Source of the DNA: Promethearchaeota archaeon
GTDB lineage: Archaea > Asgardarchaeota > Odinarchaeia > Odinarchaeales > JBHLKK01
Length of the DNA: 8,085 bases
Assembly (NCBI GenBank): GCA_048939465.1
Contig: JBHLPL010000089.1
Span: forward strand, 1-8,085
Direction of reading: 5' to 3'
Shown here: one piece after another, positions 1,459 through 8,085 of the stretch
Position numbering within the stretch: position 1 is the first letter of the stretch
How the letters are laid out: each line of letters opens with the position of its first letter
Translations under genes and position numbers: made by a program
Notes under the pieces: model-generated
Told to the model about the DNA's origin: nothing
Database searches by the model: none
The model's input: only the letters and a program-made list of their open reading frames with translations

Positions 1459-1950
1459 CTAAATATGCCCCATATCTGAAGTAGGGAAGTCGGTTGGGAA
1501 GCCTTTTGAATCTGTGTCTTTGTGTATGTTTCGTCTTTTTCTTGAGGGTTGGCTAGAGCGCTTCGGACTAAAGTAGGTATTGATGTGATCCCAAGTCTCT
1601 TCCCACCCTTTTAGAGTGTAAGGAGCATTATTCCTGAAAGAGATTCTTCGCAACCCGGCCCTTTCTTCTTCAGAAAGGTTGCTCTTCTTAAGGAGTAATT
1701 CAAGGCTTTCATCAGTGGCGACTTTTTCCCAGCTCCGGTGCTCGTCAGTCGAGTCATCAGCAAGGTAATCTATTGAGACATCAAGCTCGTCGGCTAAGCC
1801 ACGAAGAATCCGCAGGCCGGGATTCTTCTGTTGTCCGCTTTCAATCTGGTACAGGTACGACCTCTCCATGCCAACTTTATCAGCCAGCTGAGTGCGCCCG
1901 AGCTTCTTTACCTCGCGTAGGCCTTTAATCTTTTGCGCTAAAGTCGCCAT
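1459..1950 (-). CDS. XRE/Cro-C1 family helix-turn-helix transcriptional regulator (163 aa)
   Basis: The N-terminal LAQKIKGLREVKKLGRTQLADKVGMERSYLYQIESGQQKNPGLRILRGLADELDVSIDYL is a canonical HTH_3/XRE domain. About 95 aa of C-terminal extension follow. There is a GGGGA SD-like motif upstream, and the gene is divergent from the rSAM operon. Confidence 0.92.
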   Translation of the reverse strand: MATLAQKIKGLREVKKLGRTQLADKVGMERSYLYQIESGQQKNPGLRILRGLADELDVSIDYLADDSTDEHRSWEKVATDESLELLLKKSNLSEEERAGLRRISFRNNAPYTLKGWEETWDHINTYFSPKRSSQPSRKRRNIHKDTDSKGFPTDFPTSDMGHI

Positions 1951-1974
1951 TTTGATTCCCCACGAACGAATTAT

Positions 1975-2003
1975 ATTTTAAACCATTGTGAGTTATCAGT
2001 CAA
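1975..2003 (-). promoter_or_regulatory. sigma70-type promoter for the XRE gene
   Basis: Minus strand: TTGACT (2003-1998), 17-nt spacer, TAAAAT (1980-1975), ending 24 nt before the ATG at 1950. Confidence 0.7.
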
Positions 2004-2015
2004 ACATGATTGACT
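1998..2015. promoter_or_regulatory. Palindromic candidate operator covering both divergent -35 boxes
   Basis: AGTCAA-ACATGA-TTGACT: 16 of 18 positions are self-complementary (the only mismatched pair is 2004/2009). Each arm is the -35 hexamer of one divergent promoter. Confidence 0.6.
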
Positions 2016-2038
2016 TTTTAATATTCAGATTGTATAAT
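2010..2038 (+). promoter_or_regulatory. sigma70-type promoter P1 for the rSAM-UDG-HD operon
   Basis: TTGACT (2010-2015), 17-nt spacer, perfect TATAAT (2033-2038). Confidence 0.78.
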
Positions 2039-2100
2039 AAAAAAAACATATTGTTTACTACAACGATAATGACGATTACTATATAAAACGTTGGTGCAGT

Positions 2101-2129
2101 TTGACATTATCGGGATCTAGATTTAGAAT
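2101..2129 (+). promoter_or_regulatory. Second, tandem sigma70-type promoter P2 for the rSAM operon
   Basis: Perfect TTGACA (2101-2106), 17-nt spacer, TAGAAT (2124-2129). It lies upstream of the strong SD GGAGGTG (2160-2166) and the ATG at 2172. Confidence 0.68.
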
Positions 2130-2171
2130 GTTTGTCCTTGCCTCAATGGTTTACAGGTTGGAGGTGATGTA

Positions 2172-3242
2172 ATGACTAGCTACCGCCTCCGAGAGCTAAA
2201 GATAGAGGTCAATAGAGACTGCCCTCTCCAATGTCTTCATTGCTCATCTAATGGCATGCCTAAAGCTCCTGAACGCCTGAATCCACACAAAGTTTCTGAA
2301 CTGATAAAAGAGTTTGCTTACTTGGGTGGCGAAAAGTTATGTATTTCTGGCGGAGAGCCGTTGTGCTATCAAGAGTTGCCGGACGTAATTAGCACATGCC
2401 GGGGCAAAAATATTGATCTTTCTCTCTACACGACCGGCATTGCACGTAATGGCGGTCCTTCTAAACCCATATCAGAGAAGATGGCATTCTTCTTAGCTGA
2501 GCAAGGTGTTAAGGTCATATTCAGTATTCATGGTGCCAACGAAAAAACTCACGATACGCTTACCCAGGTGAAGGGTAGCTTTTTCGGGACATTAGCCGCT
2601 ATTGAAAAAACTATAAAGGCTGGAGCTCCGGTAGAACTTCATGTTGTCCCGACTGCTATGAACTTCAAAGAGCTCGTTGATATAGCTAGGTTAGCGGATT
2701 CGGTGGGCGTGAAGAAGATCAGCTGGCTTCGTTTCGTTCCACAAGGACGTGGATACCTGAATAGGAACGTTTTACAGCTAAATAAGGAACAACTGAAAGC
2801 CCTTACTAGTAAAAAAGCTGAAGTGAATAATACATGTCCGAATATTTCAATTAGGACTGGTGCTCCATTTAATATTCTTTGCCCACAGTTACCAGCACCA
2901 TGTGAAGCTGGAACGAGCGTTCTAACGATTACTCCTGATGGCTCCATTTCTCCTTGTGATGCTTTCAAGAGGTTTGATATCCCTGATAGATTCGGGAATG
3001 TTTTACGGGCGTCCCTTGCCGAAGTATGGCAAAATTCGCTGTTCTTGAATGCAGTTAGGGCTTTACATGAGTCTAGCTTAAACTCTTCGTGTTCTTCATG
3101 TGCTTTCTACTCTCGCTGTAATTCTGGCTGCCTCGCCCAAAAAGCAATCGTTGCGGGCACATTGACTGACGGTAAAGACCCTTGCTGCCCATTGGGAGAA
3201 GTCGAGGTAGTTAGGGATGAAGTCAAAGCAATCACAGTTTGA
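2172..3242 (+). CDS. Radical SAM protein with C-terminal SPASM domain (356 aa)
   Basis: CxxxCxxC at C17/C21/C24 (CPLQCLHC) and a GGEP motif (ISGGEPL). SPASM cysteine pattern: CEAG-x-PDGSISPC ... GNV...SLAEVW ... CSSCAFYSRCNSGC (Cx2Cx5Cx3C) ... DPCCP. Strong SD GGAGGTG. Confidence 0.95.
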   Translation: MTSYRLRELKIEVNRDCPLQCLHCSSNGMPKAPERLNPHKVSELIKEFAYLGGEKLCISGGEPLCYQELPDVISTCRGKNIDLSLYTTGIARNGGPSKPISEKMAFFLAEQGVKVIFSIHGANEKTHDTLTQVKGSFFGTLAAIEKTIKAGAPVELHVVPTAMNFKELVDIARLADSVGVKKISWLRFVPQGRGYLNRNVLQLNKEQLKALTSKKAEVNNTCPNISIRTGAPFNILCPQLPAPCEAGTSVLTITPDGSISPCDAFKRFDIPDRFGNVLRASLAEVWQNSLFLNAVRALHESSLNSSCSSCAFYSRCNSGCLAQKAIVAGTLTDGKDPCCPLGEVEVVRDEVKAITV

Positions 3243-3840
3243 TGACCTTATTGCACGGGTGCTGAATTGTAGCCTGTGTCCTCGAATGAGCCAACGAAAG
3301 CCCGTATTAAGTCTGTCAAACGGTAATTTGGACGCCCAGGTGGTTTTTGTCGCTGAAGCACCGGGCAGGCTTGGGGCAGATAAATTTGGTATTCCTCTAT
3401 TTGGCGACCAGACTGGTCGTAACTTTGATTGGCTTCTTTCCAATGCTGGTTTAAGTAGGGAGTCTATTTTTATTACCAACGCTATATTGTGTAATCCTAG
3501 GAAAGCTGATGGTAACAATGACTCGCCTGCAAAATCGGAAATTCGCAATTGTTCCGCGTATCTAAAAGAGACACTGGATATCATCAAGCCCAAATATGTT
3601 GTGTCATTGGGGAAAGTCGCCCTGACAGCTCTGAGAATTCTTCACCCTATTGAGATTGAACTGGGTAAAAGCGTAGGCCAGTTATTTTCTTGGAACGGAT
3701 GTAAAATATTTCCGCTATTTCATCCTGGGCCTAGGGCTTTTATTTGGCGATCTAGAGTTCAGCAGGCTGAAGATTACAGGGATCTCGGGCGTTTGTTAAA
3801 TGAGTCGACATATGCTACTGGAAGCCAATTATCCTTTTAG
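3217..3840 (+). CDS. Uracil-DNA glycosylase superfamily protein, Fe-S cluster type (family 4/5-like) (207 aa)
   Basis: Four putative [4Fe-4S] ligands (NCSLC, LCNP, RNCSAYL), motif A variant VAEAPGRLGAD, FITNAILC, IKPKYVVSLGKVA and motif B FHPG. Overlaps the rSAM 3' end by 26 nt and has a GAGGT SD-like motif. Confidence 0.92.
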   Translation: MKSKQSQFDDLIARVLNCSLCPRMSQRKPVLSLSNGNLDAQVVFVAEAPGRLGADKFGIPLFGDQTGRNFDWLLSNAGLSRESIFITNAILCNPRKADGNNDSPAKSEIRNCSAYLKETLDIIKPKYVVSLGKVALTALRILHPIEIELGKSVGQLFSWNGCKIFPLFHPGPRAFIWRSRVQQAEDYRDLGRLLNESTYATGSQLSF

Positions 3841-3849
3841 GGGAGTTAG

Positions 3850-5262
3850 ATGGAAGTAATTGGGCTGAATCCATTGAATGATGAGAACCTAGTGCCTGAG
3901 TTACAAAAGCGAGTTAAAGAAGGGCGGTTATCTTTTATTTCTGAAGATTGCCGCGAACAGATTAGTGATTTAGATTTATCAGAGGAAGAGAAACAGTTAG
4001 GCCATGAGAGTGCCTTGGATTTGTGGCAACCCTTAGTTGAGGATGCTGTAACATATCTCAAGATGTCTGACCCCAGAGAGTGGTCAGAGAAGTCCGGTGA
4101 GCCCAGTACACTGGAAGAAAAAAATAGCCTAAAGCCATTCGGCATAGAAAAGCTTAATGAGTATTTCATCCGGTTCATAGAGTTTGAAAAAATTCTATAT
4201 GGGGCCGAGAAGTATTACCGTGAGCATACCCTGCATGTGTTTCGCGTTTGGATGCTTGGGGCTCTTCTCTTGGATGACTGGTTTCAGGCCGGAGAGTACC
4301 CATGTGTAGAATTTTTCGCATATGTATCTAAGAGAACCGGTAAACCTGTTGAAGAACTCATCGACTCTCAAGAAATTCAAGCCATGTGGTGCATTATCGC
4401 CCTTAGCCATGACCTTGGATATCCTCTGCAAAAGGTAGATAAAATAAATGAGCAGACGCGAATAATGCTACGACAGTATGCGAGGGTCAATTTACAGGAT
4501 CTTAATTTCGATGTGCCTCAGCCACATCAGTTCATAAATGATTTCATTCTTAAGTTTATCAGTTCCCAAACAATCTTTGAGGATGAATACAGACAGCAGT
4601 CGGAGCCAAAGCAAAGAGAGTTGCCGGATAAGGAACGCGTATTCAGAACTCACGTGCAGGCGAAATATTATCTAAAGTATTCGAAATCCCTTGAAGATTT
4701 TGAACATGGCATCTTTAGTTCTGTTATATTGATGAAAAATCTCACTTACTTTCTGGAGTCAGATTATGACATGGATGAACTCAAACCTTTAGACTTCAAA
4801 GATGCCAAGCAATGTGCTATTAGAAGGGAGATCCTTCGAGCCATAGCCTGTCACACTTGTGAGGAAATTTATCATATACATCCCGATACGTTGGGTTTCG
4901 TATTGATTCTCTGCGACGAATTACAGAACTGGGGAAGGCCGGCTTTTGAGGAGATGCGAATTGCTCAATCATCACCATCCGTTGCGAGGCTAATGAAGTT
5001 TAATTCACGAGAGGTAGAGTATGAATTAGACTTGCCTGGAGATAAGAATGAGTTGCGTGAGTGGACGAGAGGAATATTTCAACGTCTTCACAAGATATTA
5101 CGTGTAGCTGTCGATGCCTCTGACAGGAAATGTACTTGCAAGATCACCATCAAGAGTAAAGATGGATTAACTGATAAATACGAATTCAGTTTCAAACCAG
5201 AGGAAAAGCAGAAGGTTCAATTTCTGAAAGATAATCATAGTTGGAATCCATGGAAAGATTGA
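3850..5262 (+). CDS. HD-domain metal-dependent phosphohydrolase (470 aa)
   Basis: Ordered HD-superfamily motifs: YREHTLHVFRV (H), ALSHDLGYP (HD), FEHGIFSS (H), AIACHT (H), LCDELQNWGRP (D). Starts 9 nt after the UDG stop, with a GGGAG SD. Confidence 0.88.
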   Translation: MEVIGLNPLNDENLVPELQKRVKEGRLSFISEDCREQISDLDLSEEEKQLGHESALDLWQPLVEDAVTYLKMSDPREWSEKSGEPSTLEEKNSLKPFGIEKLNEYFIRFIEFEKILYGAEKYYREHTLHVFRVWMLGALLLDDWFQAGEYPCVEFFAYVSKRTGKPVEELIDSQEIQAMWCIIALSHDLGYPLQKVDKINEQTRIMLRQYARVNLQDLNFDVPQPHQFINDFILKFISSQTIFEDEYRQQSEPKQRELPDKERVFRTHVQAKYYLKYSKSLEDFEHGIFSSVILMKNLTYFLESDYDMDELKPLDFKDAKQCAIRREILRAIACHTCEEIYHIHPDTLGFVLILCDELQNWGRPAFEEMRIAQSSPSVARLMKFNSREVEYELDLPGDKNELREWTRGIFQRLHKILRVAVDASDRKCTCKITIKSKDGLTDKYEFSFKPEEKQKVQFLKDNHSWNPWKD

Positions 5263-5374
5263 GATAATTCCCTCGTTGAAAGATTTATTGGTGAATACTC
5301 CTGTTACTCCGTTCTCACCCCCTTTTAGATAGCCTAGATACGCGGATTACAAACCATCATTAGAGTATTATTCA

Positions 5375-5404
5375 TTGCCTTATTCCCTTTAGGGCTGCTA
5401 TATT
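5375..5404 (+). promoter_or_regulatory. Possible internal promoter for the MazG-like ORF
   Basis: TTGCCT (5375-5380), 18-nt spacer, TATATT (5399-5404), with TGn directly upstream (extended -10 type). It lies in the 191-nt gap after the HD gene. Confidence 0.35.
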
Positions 5405-5453
5405 GGGTGTGCAAACATAAAAGTAAAATCGCGTGTAAAGGGGGGCAGGTTAT

Positions 5454-5741
5454 ATGGACTTAGCACAACGATTGATGTTTAGAATCGGATTTTTACACGC
5501 CCAAGTGAGTGGCATATTTGATGCTCTTAAACATATACTCCGAGGAACTGAAGCTTGGGAGCGTTCACGGGCGAATATGGCCTACGTTGAATCACAAGTA
5601 GGAGACTTGATAGTTCAAACTCATCTTCTTTGTGACCAGCTTAGCATTGATTATAAAAAATGTGAGCAGTTGGGCTGGAAGAGGTATGAGGAACTGAAAA
5701 CTAGTTGGGAGGGAAAGGGATACGGTGATAAGTGGGCTTAA
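5454..5741 (+). CDS. MazG-like (all-alpha NTP pyrophosphohydrolase fold) small protein, catalytic motifs degenerate (95 aa)
   Basis: ESQVGDLIVQTHLLCDQLSIDYKKCEQLGWKRYEE matches the MazG-like 'E-E-(L/I)-G-D-(V/L)...L...L-G-I-D...K...R' pattern. The first acidic motif reads HAQVSGIFDA instead of xEExGELxEA. G-rich SD upstream; an in-frame TAA at 5436-5438 fixes the start. Confidence 0.6.
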   Translation: MDLAQRLMFRIGFLHAQVSGIFDALKHILRGTEAWERSRANMAYVESQVGDLIVQTHLLCDQLSIDYKKCEQLGWKRYEELKTSWEGKGYGDKWA

Positions 5742-5777: not shown

Positions 5778-5921
5778 TTAACTAATATGGTTTTTAAACT
5801 CCAGTGGCATACACTGCACTCCCCATTCATTACGATTTTCAAGCCAGGATTCAAAAGCTATTGCTAATTCATTAGATAGCACACGATGACCCTGCTCAAC
5901 TGATTTTGCTAGTACCTTGGT
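5778..5921 (-). pseudogene. Orphan C-terminal tail of a second Nmad2-like allele
   Basis: A start-less frame overlapping the Nmad2 stop reads TKVLAKSVEQGHRVLSNELAIAFESWLENRNEWGVQCMPLEFKNHIS* (TAA 5780-5778). QGHR...F..W.....G....PL(D/E)(W/F) is the C-terminal pattern I recall for Nmad2 proteins; not verified by search. Confidence 0.45.
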
Positions 5922-6549
5922 CTACTCGTTTTTCTGCTTGCTCGAATTGGAAAGGATCAGCGATAACAATGTTTCTATTTTTCCAATTCATCTCTTCTAT
6001 ACCCTTAACAAGGGCTGCAACTTGAGTATTCGCGAGAGCTTTTTTACTATAGCCCATTCCATTCTTGTAACTTATCGATTCAAGGTCTACCGGAGGAGCT
6101 GCACTGCCAAAATAGAAGAAATGGTTAGAGATTAGTACATTATCAGTCTTGGTATCTCTCTGAAAGTTTGTCATATTAGTTGAACCATCTTGGTTACTGT
6201 GATGTGAATCCTCTTGAATCCAGTCCCCTGTTGCTGTATCCCTATGATATACATTGTCCCCGACCATCATTACAGAACTTCCGTTGCGTACAGGTTTTTT
6301 TATTTGAAATCTTGTATCTGCCCAATACGTTTCAAATGTGAGTATCTCTGAAATATTCATCAGAAATATGCACTTTCCTGTCGCTCGTAGACGACTTCCT
6401 CCAACACCCATCACCCAATCTCCGATCCGAGCACCTTTTCTGATTTCTGGTTTGCATGTGGCCAAAGTGCAGTATCCATGAAATGGGTTTGGAGCAAAAC
6501 CGAAGTCACGATCGACAACATAAACATATAGGTTTCTTTGGTCTAACAT
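5896..6549 (-). CDS. Nucleotide modification associated domain 2 (Nmad2) protein (217 aa)
   Basis: The N-terminal YVYVVDRDFGFAPNPFHGYCTLATCKPEIRKGARIGDWVMGVGG, together with GDNVYHRD, WIQEDSHHS and VLISNHFFYFG, is characteristic of Nmad2. The ATG overlaps the upstream TIR stop by 7 nt. Confidence 0.85.
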   Translation of the reverse strand: MLDQRNLYVYVVDRDFGFAPNPFHGYCTLATCKPEIRKGARIGDWVMGVGGSRLRATGKCIFLMNISEILTFETYWADTRFQIKKPVRNGSSVMMVGDNVYHRDTATGDWIQEDSHHSNQDGSTNMTNFQRDTKTDNVLISNHFFYFGSAAPPVDLESISYKNGMGYSKKALANTQVAALVKGIEEMNWKNRNIVIADPFQFEQAEKRVDQGTSKIS

Positions 6550-7031
6550 ATGGTACGAGGGCCGTCCTTCCTGGGACTAGGTGTTCCATCAGGATTCTGA
6601 AATGATGGTTCTCCTTCAATCGCAGAGATTATACTTTCAGAGTCCCAACCAACGACCTGTGAGGTCCCGTACTTATCTAAGGCTGGAGGACGATCGACTT
6701 TATCCTTGAGCCCACTCTCGTAGACTCCCACAATCTTCTTCCCTTGCCTATGCGCTTGCTCAATTTCCCAGTTTACCCAGGGGCGCTTGTAGGTCTCCTT
6801 GCCAACAATGACTATTACTGAACCGGCCCAAGATAACTTCATCCTAAGTAGACGTTTGATTACCGCATCTTTAACGAGTCCCTTATCTAAACGTTCTTGG
6901 TTTGCTGGTTTAGCTCGGATGGAACTATTTCTAATGTTATATCCGTTTTTCCGAAGTAAGTCTGTTAGTTTATCAACATCGGCGTCATCCTTATGATGAT
7001 GACTAATGAAAACATTCTTCGTCTCTGCCAT
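6543..7031 (-). CDS. ThsB-like TIR-domain protein (MTH538/DUF1863 type) (162 aa)
   Basis: KNVFISHHHKDD (beta-A), AGSVIVIVGKETYKRPWVNWEIEQA (beta-C/alpha-C with the catalytic Glu in WEI) and GKKIVGVY. AGAGG SD-like motif upstream. Confidence 0.9.
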   Translation of the reverse strand: MAETKNVFISHHHKDDADVDKLTDLLRKNGYNIRNSSIRAKPANQERLDKGLVKDAVIKRLLRMKLSWAGSVIVIVGKETYKRPWVNWEIEQAHRQGKKIVGVYESGLKDKVDRPPALDKYGTSQVVGWDSESIISAIEGEPSFQNPDGTPSPRKDGPRTIC

Positions 7032-7076
7032 CTCATTTCCTCTTTCTCTAAAGCATGAGAACTAGATCTTTTTATT

Positions 7077-7550
7077 CTATTCATCTTCTAGAGAAGTGAG
7101 ATCCTCAACACCAGCCATATCTGCAAGCATTTTTGCATATTTTCTCAACTCGAGTTGCACATCGCCTAACTCTTTTCTGAATTCACTCTTCTTTTCAGGG
7201 TCTTCAAACGTTCCTTGCTGACTAAAACGGTGCCATTTTGCAGTGAAAGGCCTGACAATTTGGTTTAGAACTACTACCGCCAATTTGGTGAACTCAATAC
7301 AGTATCTGGTATTATTCTTCAATACTTGACGAGTAATAGGAAATAACGAATAAACACTCTCTAAAGCGGTTTTTTCATCACCATATTCAACATCGAGTGG
7401 CTGAGTCGTAATGCGCGTTAGTAGTTCGATATATAATTCCCATGCTGCCGTTTTATCTTCGTCTTGAGGTTGCCATTCCATCTCCAGGAACAGGGCCTTT
7501 ATTTTTAAAGATGTCATATCCCAATTTTCCAACCACTTACGCCATTTCAT
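7077..7550 (-). CDS. Conserved-looking alpha-helical hypothetical protein between two TIR genes (157 aa)
   Basis: Start reassigned from the track's GTG at 7559 to the ATG at 7550, which forms an ATGA overlap with the upstream TIR stop (7549-7547). Motif-like blocks: AAWELYIELLTRITTQPL, ALESVYSLF and VLNQIVRPFTAKWH. No recognisable catalytic fold. Confidence 0.82.
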   Translation of the reverse strand: MKWRKWLENWDMTSLKIKALFLEMEWQPQDEDKTAAWELYIELLTRITTQPLDVEYGDEKTALESVYSLFPITRQVLKNNTRYCIEFTKLAVVVLNQIVRPFTAKWHRFSQQGTFEDPEKKSEFRKELGDVQLELRKYAKMLADMAGVEDLTSLEDE

Positions 7551-8085
7551 TCCTGCCACCTACCTCCTGAACGGTTATTAGCGAATAAAGGGCGAGTGTT
7601 ATTAGGATTCACTCTATTTCGCCTTTCAAATGCTTCGTGAATCCAACTCTGGACAGTGTTTGCATCATTACTCCAGTTATAGATTTCTGCAAAGCGGCAT
7701 TTGATGTTGTCACATAATCTTGGTGGAATTGTGTATGGATCATATGTTTGTTGATCCTGACGAGGATAAGTAGGGAGGATAATTCCGAGAAGCCCGGAGC
7801 GAGGATTATACTGCGTATGTCTAATGCTAGCCGCAATTTCCCAGTCGACATGTTTGCGTTTCCACGTTTCTGCTCCGATTAAAACAACTGTGACTGTTGA
7901 ATCGCGTAAATATTCTTCTCTAATTTTTTGTCGTATGGTTTCTGTTTTCAGGTTTGGATCTAGGTCGCCGATCTGTACCGATCTGACCACCATAATATCA
8001 TTGATATGTGCAAACATATATTCAAAGCTATCTCTATATGCTTGATCTCTTAGGTGATGATAACTTACGAATACCTTGTGTCTAA
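7547..8085 (-). CDS. ThsB-like TIR-domain protein, 5'-truncated by the window edge (178 aa visible)
   Basis: The frame is open to the window edge. Upstream of the track's ATG at 8017 it reads RHKVFVSYHHLRDQAYRDSFEY, the typical ThsB beta-A motif. It continues IRQKIREEYLRDSTVTVVLIGAETWKRKHVDWEIAAS (catalytic Glu in WEI) and GLLGIILP. Confidence 0.9.
   Translation of the reverse strand, partial: RHKVFVSYHHLRDQAYRDSFEYMFAHINDIMVVRSVQIGDLDPNLKTETIRQKIREEYLRDSTVTVVLIGAETWKRKHVDWEIAASIRHTQYNPRSGLLGIILPTYPRQDQQTYDPYTIPPRLCDNIKCRFAEIYNWSNDANTVQSWIHEAFERRNRVNPNNTRPLFANNRSGGRWQE

Follow-up and report, generated by a model that had tools for sequence, protein, structure and literature searches.

The stretch analysed here (the window) is an entire contig of 8,085 bp (C14; JBHLPL010000089.1) from a Promethearchaeota metagenome-assembled genome (MAG) of 1.96 Mb in 152 contigs. 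It includes an operon encoding a radical S-adenosylmethionine (radical SAM) enzyme with a SPASM domain, an Fe-S protein of the uracil-DNA glycosylase (UDG) superfamily and a protein of a new HD-fold family, which lie opposite an XRE-family regulator and are followed by a small MazG-like open reading frame (ORF). In related loci the radical SAM gene is the hub of two partnerships, one with the HD gene and the other with the UDG gene, and the window has both. On balance, the operon and its relatives probably form an inducible, mobile and modular conflict system, most likely directed against phages, that acts on uracil- or thymine-type pyrimidine deoxynucleotides or DNA bases. The role in defence is suggested by the gene context and by analogy with the validated system DS-4.

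Conservation and exchange of the operon genes

The radical SAM gene (2172-3242, + strand; 356 aa) is translationally coupled to the UDG gene (3217-3840, +; 207 aa), which it overlaps by 26 nt, and a gap of 9 nt separates the latter from the HD gene (3850-5262, +; 470 aa). This operon, with the same overlap and gap and the opposing XRE gene, had been proposed in the first-pass annotation and was reproduced by ORF calls and family scans. The gene order XRE, radical SAM, UDG, HD and 95-aa ORF is repeated in loci L070-L073, L089, L110 and L121, and the arrangement is thus not due to chance.

The HD family was surveyed by a scan with an HD alignment, one genome per species being retained, which gave 69 loci; the window was counted as the 70th and the ORFs were clustered. 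A radical SAM gene lies beside the HD gene in 53 of the 70 loci, nearly always directly upstream and on the same strand. The other partners are DUF2284 (~31 loci), HMUDK_hel (17 loci; E 1e-110), TIR with Nmad2 (13 loci) and UDG (six loci), and a thymidylate-synthase-like (TS-like) gene is present in five loci, all of which lack the radical SAM gene. The hosts cover more than ten bacterial and archaeal phyla and include Nitrospirota, Bacillota, Bacteroidota, Planctomycetota, Thermodesulfobacteriota, Spirochaetota, Promethearchaeota, Thorarchaeota, Bathyarchaeia and Thermoplasmata. Pairwise identities of the HD and radical SAM proteins are correlated (r = 0.90, 46 loci), and fusions of radical SAM/SPASM to HD (783-885 aa) were found in five (P0121, P0150, P0179, P0228 and P0235) of the 278 clusters, defined at 50% identity, that an exhaustive profile search for the HD family returned at E ≤ 1e-30. 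Adjacency, correlated identities and fusions are strong sequence evidence that the two proteins act in one pathway.

The UDG subtype of the window was surveyed in 80 metagenome loci, with counts limited to the loci that have room on the respective side. A radical SAM gene lies directly upstream of the UDG gene in 55 of 68 loci, and in 22 of 41 a gene of the thymidylate synthase family (Atlas score 0.98) lies ahead of the radical SAM gene. Downstream of UDG (59 loci), the HD gene was found in 13 loci and a dCTP-deaminase-family gene, recognised by a match to dCTP deaminase in the PDB (E 1e-17) and also by Pfam DCD, in five, and in 25 loci the UDG is fused to a C-terminal domain of ~180 aa. Given that the radical SAM-HD and radical SAM-UDG pairings are both conserved, and separately so, the radical SAM gene is assigned as the hub of two partnerships. 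A conserved module was therefore found, regulated as described in the first-pass annotation, but its radical SAM, UDG and HD triad is not an evolutionary unit, as two separate pairings coincide here. The annotation had also recognised no named system in this combination, and literature searches found no description of a module of radical SAM with HD or of SPASM-type radical SAM with UDG; searches for Nmad2/DUF2284 and for radical SAM and HD with TIR/UDG in defence were likewise negative.

A maximum-likelihood tree of the HD proteins, computed by a quick search, served to identify sister loci. The third gene differs between sisters, being UDG in L009 but DUF2284 in L010, and UDG in L047 but DUF2284 in L049 and L040. 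Versions with the TS-like gene are scattered among the radical SAM versions on the tree, and dCTP deaminase takes the HD slot in sister loci. In L087 the UDG gene is internally deleted (7133-7483; 116 aa) and accompanied by an intact DUF2284 gene (9161-9667), and in L089 an intact UDG gene (1254-1778) is found with DUF2284 reduced to a 53-aa C-terminal remnant (3893-4054). As judged by these remnants, the ancestor of L087 and L089 probably carried both genes. An OPRT/UPRT-like phosphoribosyltransferase gene follows the 95-aa ORF in the close clade L087-L089, and in L012 and L018 Nmad1 (DUF1599) lies between the TS-like and HD genes.

DUF2284 was considered as a cryptic UDG and rejected, since hhalign gave a probability of 0.3% and the structural search returned no UDG row. 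The DUF2284 model (pLDDT 94.3) resembles the AdoMet-binding activation domain of MetH (Z 8.2), CblD/MMACHC and nitroreductases. No PDB sequence match to DUF2284 was found, and Foldseek comparison of the model with the PDB gave nothing significant.

The 79 large flanking genes sampled included several AbiLi genes, genes for AriA/PtuA/GajA-like ATPases, MADS and restriction-modification (R-M) methylases, relaxases and transposases, and also housekeeping genes; locus L073 adjoins R-M genes. Within the phylum, an HD orthologue was detected in one of 60 genomes (E 2e-110), and none was present in two genomes of the same genus (78-82% complete) or four of the same order (93-98% complete). A close UDG was found in none of the 60, the best match being 38% identical. 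The HD protein had no homologue in 50,697 phage genomes (tblastn) or in an IMG/VR scan and a single plasmid match, and the idea of a phage-borne pathway was rejected on the phage and IMG/VR results. In L074 (2-2012 and downstream), the closest relative with context, an HD gene (63% identity) and a UDG gene occupy one end of a phage-like contig with genes for YopX, Pam3_Gp34 and an AEP-TOTE primase. Phages or satellites may carry some versions of the module.

Properties and control of the encoded proteins

The radical SAM protein begins straight at the radical SAM core and exceeds the cut-offs of Radical_SAM (PF04055; 58.2 bits, cut-off 29.5), SPASM (PF13186; 44.7, cut-off 21.5) and TIGR04085 (48.9, cut-off 27). 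The CX3CX2C motif at C17, C21 and C24, the GGE motif at G60-G61-E62 and the SPASM residues C244, C262 and C320 show no variation among 33 relatives, and motifs and Pfam scores together place the protein in the radical SAM/SPASM superfamily. The auxiliary domain (alignment A5; window residues 237-340) occurs in two forms. A full seven-Cys SPASM domain is present in the window (C244, C262, C307, C310, C316, C320 and C339) and in the versions from Nitrospirota and Bathyarchaeia, whereas those from Bacillota and Planctomycetota have a four-Cys, twitch-like domain. The nearest solved structure is that of PqqE (E 6e-16), but the scores of the named NCBIfam matches lie far below their cut-offs (PqqE, 112.8 against 381 bits; MftC, 112 against 265), and as judged by these scores the enzyme belongs to no named family. 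A complex prediction for the radical SAM and HD proteins gave a score of 0.00, which counts neither for nor against binding.

Low scores, together with the lack of a precursor and of a RiPP (ribosomally synthesised and post-translationally modified peptide) recognition element (RRE) or PqqD domain, also set the protein apart from the RiPP and cofactor maturases (PqqE, MftC and the sactipeptide enzymes). Neither a conserved precursor peptide nor an RRE/PqqD domain was found near the radical SAM gene in the window or the sister loci; kinship to peptide maturases with a precursor nearby had been named in the first-pass annotation as the finding that would speak against its proposal. The small ORFs considered as RiPP precursors (c18, c44 and c47) were rejected, being helix-turn-helix (HTH)-like, without assignment, or Nmad1; those upstream in the sister loci look like HTH regulators.

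The UDG protein matches Pfam UDG with 87.1 bits (cut-off 24.3; E 1.5e-24). Its best solved relative is the family-4 UDG of Thermus (1ui0; E 2e-21), with which the four Fe-S cysteines, the Asn of ITN and the His of HPG are all aligned, motif A being AEAPG; the Thermotoga family-4 enzyme aligns too. The scores fall below the family-4 cut-offs (TIGR00758, 94.8 against 125.3; NF040953, 101 against 250), and on these comparisons the protein is a distinct, family-4-like subtype, for which 873 homologues were found at E ≤ 1e-10 and whose motif AEAPGRLGAD is shared without change by 23 relatives. HD-linked UDGs of L002 (7198-7830), L008 (9223-9840) and L047 (6330-6956) have GLAPG in motif A, as opposed to AEAPG in the window clade; GLAPG is presumably the family-5 (UDGb) form. 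Because of this difference, the glycosylases of the system may differ in base specificity. The fused C-terminal domain of ~180 aa, as in L132 (5977-7146), L137 (5941-7119), L172, L183 and ~21 others, has a KMTKLMYLIDL-type motif, which we take to resemble Panacea/DUF4065 antitoxin domains. In the fusion loci, the TS-like and radical SAM genes come before the fused UDG gene.

For the 470-aa HD protein, no match was found in Pfam (even at E ≤ 10), NCBIfam, PADLOC or PHROG or among PDB sequences, and Foldseek comparison of its model with the PDB gave nothing significant. HD-CE (PF24391), an Atlas lead of <0.9 only, was absent from hmmscan and was rejected. An exhaustive structural search (VIA-align) with the AlphaFold model (pLDDT 83.6, pTM 0.90) gave top rows made up almost entirely of HD-superfamily enzymes, including PDE8A (Z 10.2, rmsd 5.3, 240 residues aligned), PDE4D (Z 9.8), PPX/GppA (Z 9.6), YhaM (Z 9.0), SAMHD1 (Z 7.7) and YqeK (Z 7.4). 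As the background of helical folds in such a search is high, the assignment of the fold depends in part on the motif; 26 relatives show no change at H126, H129, H187-D188, H286, H335 and D356. The protein has thus the fold and motif of the HD superfamily but not membership by hidden Markov model. It is accepted from model and motif as a new HD-fold family, phosphodiesterase- or SAMHD1-like, probably with a two-metal site. A distant paralogue (27% identity, 486 aa, no Pfam match) is encoded on contig C118 of the same genome, G000 (6578-8038, -), and, since similar genes are present in both same-genus genomes, it may represent a resident family separate from the mobile one.

The 95-aa ORF (5454-5741, +), annotated as MazG-like, is kept at 62-94% identity in 42 proteins. 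An Atlas feature score of 0.92 to MazG-like clusters and the name 'NTP pyrophosphatase' given by JGI to two homologues agree with that annotation. Against it, matches to Pfam MazG-like (PF12643) are weak and limited to five of 21 homologues (best E 0.0039), no Pfam match was found for the window protein and no PDB sequence match for the family, and the acidic EExxE motif of the first helix is not conserved, H-x-Q-V-S-G standing in its place. The ExxD-like sequence SEIGDL, present in most members, is SQVGDL in the window copy. The label is therefore reasonable for what is probably an atypical, all-alpha NTP pyrophosphatase-like protein, and its catalytic competence is doubtful. No relation to Nmad1/DUF1599 was found with hhalign, the alignments being shallow. 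The ORF lies downstream of the HD gene in L070, L071, L073, L087-L089, L110 and L121, and overlaps it in L087 and L089. Between the window and L070, L087 and L089, it is 66-91% identical, as compared with 35-56% for the adjacent HD. A lone 62%-identical copy occurs in L085 (9001-9285) in a phage-like region with portal, capsid and MT-A70 genes.

The XRE-family regulator (1459-1950, -; 163 aa; Pfam HTH_3, E 7e-11) is divergent from the operon and matches capH of PADLOC (E 7.6e-12). A divergent XRE gene occupies the equivalent position in L070, L073, L087, L090, L092 and others, and the sister-locus regulators are XRE, fused XRE-M78, an XRE and M78 pair, or MerR. Regulators of these kinds, including the capH-like one of the window, are of defence or mobile-element type. 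In the divergent promoter/operator region (1970-2171), two sigma-70-like sites (2010-2038 and 2101-2129, +), each with 11 of 12 matches, were found upstream of the radical SAM gene, where tandem promoters had been annotated, and one (2003-1975, -; 10 of 12) precedes the XRE gene; all three are consensus matches only. A GGAGG ribosome-binding site lies ahead of the radical SAM start. A search for operators in 1940-2180 gave nothing beyond weak inverted repeats.

The TIR-Nmad2 operon and comparison with known systems

The first-pass annotation had bounded the module at 1459-5741, but the system is probably wider and, as judged by gene neighbourhoods, extends to a convergent operon at 5896-8085. 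On the minus strand, this operon encodes an Nmad2 protein (5896-6549; 217 aa; Pfam Nmad2, E 4e-69), which is a probable partner module, a ThsB-type TIR protein (6543-7031; 162 aa; Pfam ThsB_TIR, E 2e-20; PADLOC ThsB, E 3.8e-57), a helical protein of 160 aa (7077-7559) and a second TIR-like ORF (7547-8083), which clusters with the TIR family and is open at the window end. TIR and Nmad2, often with the 160-aa protein, lie beside the HD family in the 13 loci mentioned above, which belong to four phyla, and co-directionally beside radical SAM-UDG pairs lacking HD in L152 and L174. The window TIR is 71-80% identical to the TIR proteins beside radical SAM-HD in Nitrospirota and Pseudomonadota (L001, L003, L007 and L056). 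Homologues of the 160-aa protein, for which library scans gave no family match, adjoin TIR-Nmad2 and radical SAM-HD in L001, L003, L005, L007, L056, L061 and L174. In a 250-kb plasmid of a cultured strain of Parabacteroides distasonis (NZ_OY725812; 46.1-50.8 kb), genes for a hypothetical protein, TIR, Nmad2, HMUDK_hel, radical SAM and HD form one overlapping operon beside an integrase gene.

In L056 (11352-14308; Thermodesulfovibrionales), the Nmad2 gene beside radical SAM-HD is interrupted by a 2.3-kb insertion, which codes for a DDE_5 transposase of 720 aa whose N-terminal region is DruA-like. TIR-SLOG genes are present in the sister loci L005, L039 and L058. The end of the window contig falls inside the second TIR gene, and the system may run past it. 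The contig was placed in the MAG by binning alone; its GC content is 0.420, as compared with 0.434 ± 0.013 for the genome.

DS-4 ('NTTI'), reported with DefensePredictor (Science 2026), was validated in E. coli and protects from phage (PMC13092281). It consists of genes for thymidylate-synthase-like, adenylate-kinase-like (dNMP-kinase-like), HMUDK_hel ('DNA base hypermodification protein'), TIR and Nmad2 proteins, Nmad2 being gene 5 (PMC13092281). TIR and Nmad2 are common to DS-4 and the window, both of which would follow a logic centred on nucleotides, sister loci add HMUDK_hel and TS-like genes, and HD is found where DS-4 has the kinase. However, DS-4 has no radical SAM, HD of this family, UDG or MazG-like gene. 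Conversely, the window has no TS-like, kinase or HMUDK_hel gene, and tblastn detected none in the MAG, so that the window does not carry the five-gene DS-4 set. Nor can it be assigned to Thoeris, as it includes a ThsB-type TIR but no ThsA-like gene within the window, whose contig ends there.

A radical SAM gene beside an Fe-S UDG-superfamily gene is also found in the cassette of TIGR03916 ('putative DNA modification/repair radical SAM protein') with the UdgX-type TIGR03915/TIGR03914. Unlike in that cassette, the UDG of the window is nearer to family 4, the radical SAM protein is SPASM-containing and PqqE-like, there is no DUF4130 partner, and HD, dCTP deaminase and TS-like genes occur as further partners. 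The separation from this pairing made in the first-pass annotation is borne out by the scores, as the UDG reached only 66.7 of the 189.95 bits required for TIGR03914, and TIGR03916 was not among the 25 best NCBIfam matches of the radical SAM protein.

Viperins, whose product is ddhNTP (a 3'-deoxy-3',4'-didehydro nucleotide), have no SPASM domain and no HD or UDG partners. Prokaryotic viperins (pVips) share with the window a radical SAM enzyme, and would share action on nucleotides in defence only if the reading preferred here holds. PADLOC matches to pVip are weak (E 4e-10 and 3e-9) and cover the generic radical SAM core, and the SPASM domain sets the protein apart from viperins. A dCTP deaminase and an HD-type dGTPase reportedly act as defences that deplete dNTPs (Tal et al. 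2022). The exchange of HD for dCTP deaminase in sister loci parallels these two enzymes, and the HD fold resembles SAMHD1 at the Z score given above. However, none of the Pfam models for HD or dGTPase matches the present HD family, which always occurs with radical SAM or TS-like/HMUDK genes, never alone.

Phage thymidine hypermodification pathways, which use 5-HMUDK, aGPT-Pplase/AADT, a radical SAM isomerase and PLP enzymes (PMC8989533), likewise combine HMUDK_hel or TS-like proteins with radical SAM. Their chemistry acts on 5-substituted uracil in DNA (PMC8989533). In contrast to the phage pathways, the modules described here are cellular, repressor-controlled and TIR-linked, show no aGPT-Pplase and have a radical SAM enzyme that is SPASM-type rather than spore photoproduct lyase-like.

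Proposed function and alternative explanations

All the recurrent partners, namely dCTP deaminase, TS-like proteins, UDG, the OPRT-like phosphoribosyltransferase, the 5-hmdU-kinase family and the MazG-like protein, handle pyrimidine deoxynucleotides or uracil-type bases, and this suggests that the conflict system is centred on pyrimidines. The first-pass annotation had proposed a module that makes, detects or removes a non-canonical nucleotide, and a set of partners made up of nucleotide and DNA-base enzymes fits that part of it. In the mechanism considered here, infection or DNA damage would release the operon from repression by XRE (by XRE-M78 or MerR in sister loci). HD, or dCTP deaminase in sister loci, would then act together with the MazG-like protein to reshape or supply the pyrimidine nucleotide pool. 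The radical SAM enzyme, elsewhere replaced or joined by TS-like enzymes, would modify a uracil-type nucleotide or base, and UDG would excise uracil or the modified base, so that either abasic sites wreck replicating phage DNA or host DNA is kept clean. The convergent TIR-Nmad2 operon would be a cooperating arm, as in DS-4. A more specific version is possible but rather doubtful. According to it, the radical SAM enzyme makes a new modified pyrimidine from substrate supplied by HD or dCTP deaminase, and, once this pyrimidine is incorporated in viral DNA, the dedicated UDG converts it to lethal abasic sites. Such a system would differ from viperin and would be common to bacteria and to Asgard and Bathyarchaeial archaea, wired to TIR-Nmad2 signalling or processing.

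Several observations weigh against a conflict system of this kind. Loci L090 and L091 are flanked by apgM/aspartokinase and gyrA/dnaA, seemingly a fixed chromosomal site; with shared housekeeping flanks they carry dCTP deaminase and HD, respectively, which suits a variable hotspot as well as a resident metabolic locus. As UDG alternates with DUF2284, a non-glycosylase, base excision is dispensable for the core, and dCTP deaminase with UDG is also an ordinary uracil-avoidance pair. PADLOC has no radical SAM-HD model, its weak pVip match reflecting general radical SAM similarity, and the chemistry of SPASM enzymes is known best from peptides and proteins, with PqqE and MftC as the nearest named families here. 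Finally, because the window is a whole 8-kb MAG contig, the host assignment and the completeness of the system are uncertain.

The genes might instead constitute a cassette by which a mobile element hypermodifies or epigenetically marks its own DNA, for example in evasion of restriction, as in the phage thymidine pathways. HMUDK_hel, TS-like, Nmad1 and Nmad2 proteins were first defined in DNA-modification contexts, 5-HMUDK and a radical SAM isomerase act together on DNA in phage M6 (PMC8989533), one close relative, L074, is part of a phage-like contig, and homologues of the MazG-like protein occur in phage regions. However, no aGPT-Pplase/AADT transferase was found in the Pfam-scanned cluster representatives and the sampled flanking genes, and the HD family is absent from the phage genomes and the IMG/VR scan. 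Tight repression by XRE or XRE-M78 suits an inducible response better than constitutive marking, and the set of TIR, Nmad2, HMUDK_hel and TS-like genes was shown to defend, not to modify. Hypermodification of self DNA is thus improbable. Housekeeping or stress-related repair of uracil or damaged pyrimidines with sanitation of the nucleotide pool, in which UDG would remove the lesion, the HD, dCTP deaminase and MazG-like proteins would clean the pool and the radical SAM enzyme would repair a DNA lesion in the manner of spore photoproduct lyase, is judged equally improbable. It would account for the retained family-4 catalytic and Fe-S features of UDG, for the dCTP deaminase, MazG, translesion-polymerase or alkylation-repair genes near some loci, for the common housekeeping flanks of L090 and L091, and for the finding of no other family-4-type UDG in G000 at E ≤ 1e-20. 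A housekeeping function is, however, at odds with the sporadic occurrence in the phylum, genus and order described above, with the shuffling of parts between sister loci, and with the association with TIR, Nmad2, integrases, transposases, defence genes and repressors of mobile-element type.

SPASM enzymes are best known for the modification of peptides and proteins, and a maturase that introduces a cross-link or cofactor into HD, UDG, DUF2284 or an unrecognised small peptide was also considered; only the partners would then be concerned with nucleotides. The best named matches of the enzyme, PqqE, MftC and the sactipeptide maturases, point in this direction, the partners UDG and DUF2284 are Cys-rich, and the radical SAM-HD fusions could be enzyme-substrate fusions. 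Nevertheless, these matches are far below the family cut-offs (112.8 of the 381 bits required for PqqE), no RRE/PqqD domain or conserved small precursor accompanies the gene, and its small neighbours are HTH-like. The auxiliary domain of the Bacillota versions is cut to a single-cluster, twitch-like form, as in radical SAM enzymes acting on small molecules. Furthermore, the radical SAM gene persists without HD or without UDG, and hence no single partner can be its obligate substrate. A maturase is therefore the least likely of the explanations considered, and quite unlikely.

If the reading as a pyrimidine-directed conflict system is correct, the 278 HD clusters and the hundreds of radical SAM-UDG loci would represent an extensive family of immune modules with a broad taxonomic range, which would apply radical chemistry to nucleotides or DNA bases in a hitherto undescribed manner. 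Several orphan families would acquire a function, namely the new HD family, DUF2284, Nmad1/Nmad2 and the cellular HMUDK_hel proteins, and there would be a mechanistic handle on DS-4, which is validated yet unexplained. The exchanges of HD for dCTP deaminase, radical SAM for TS-like and UDG for DUF2284 are natural experiments from which the pathway may be deduced, and the enzymes could provide new nucleotide analogues or DNA-modifying tools.

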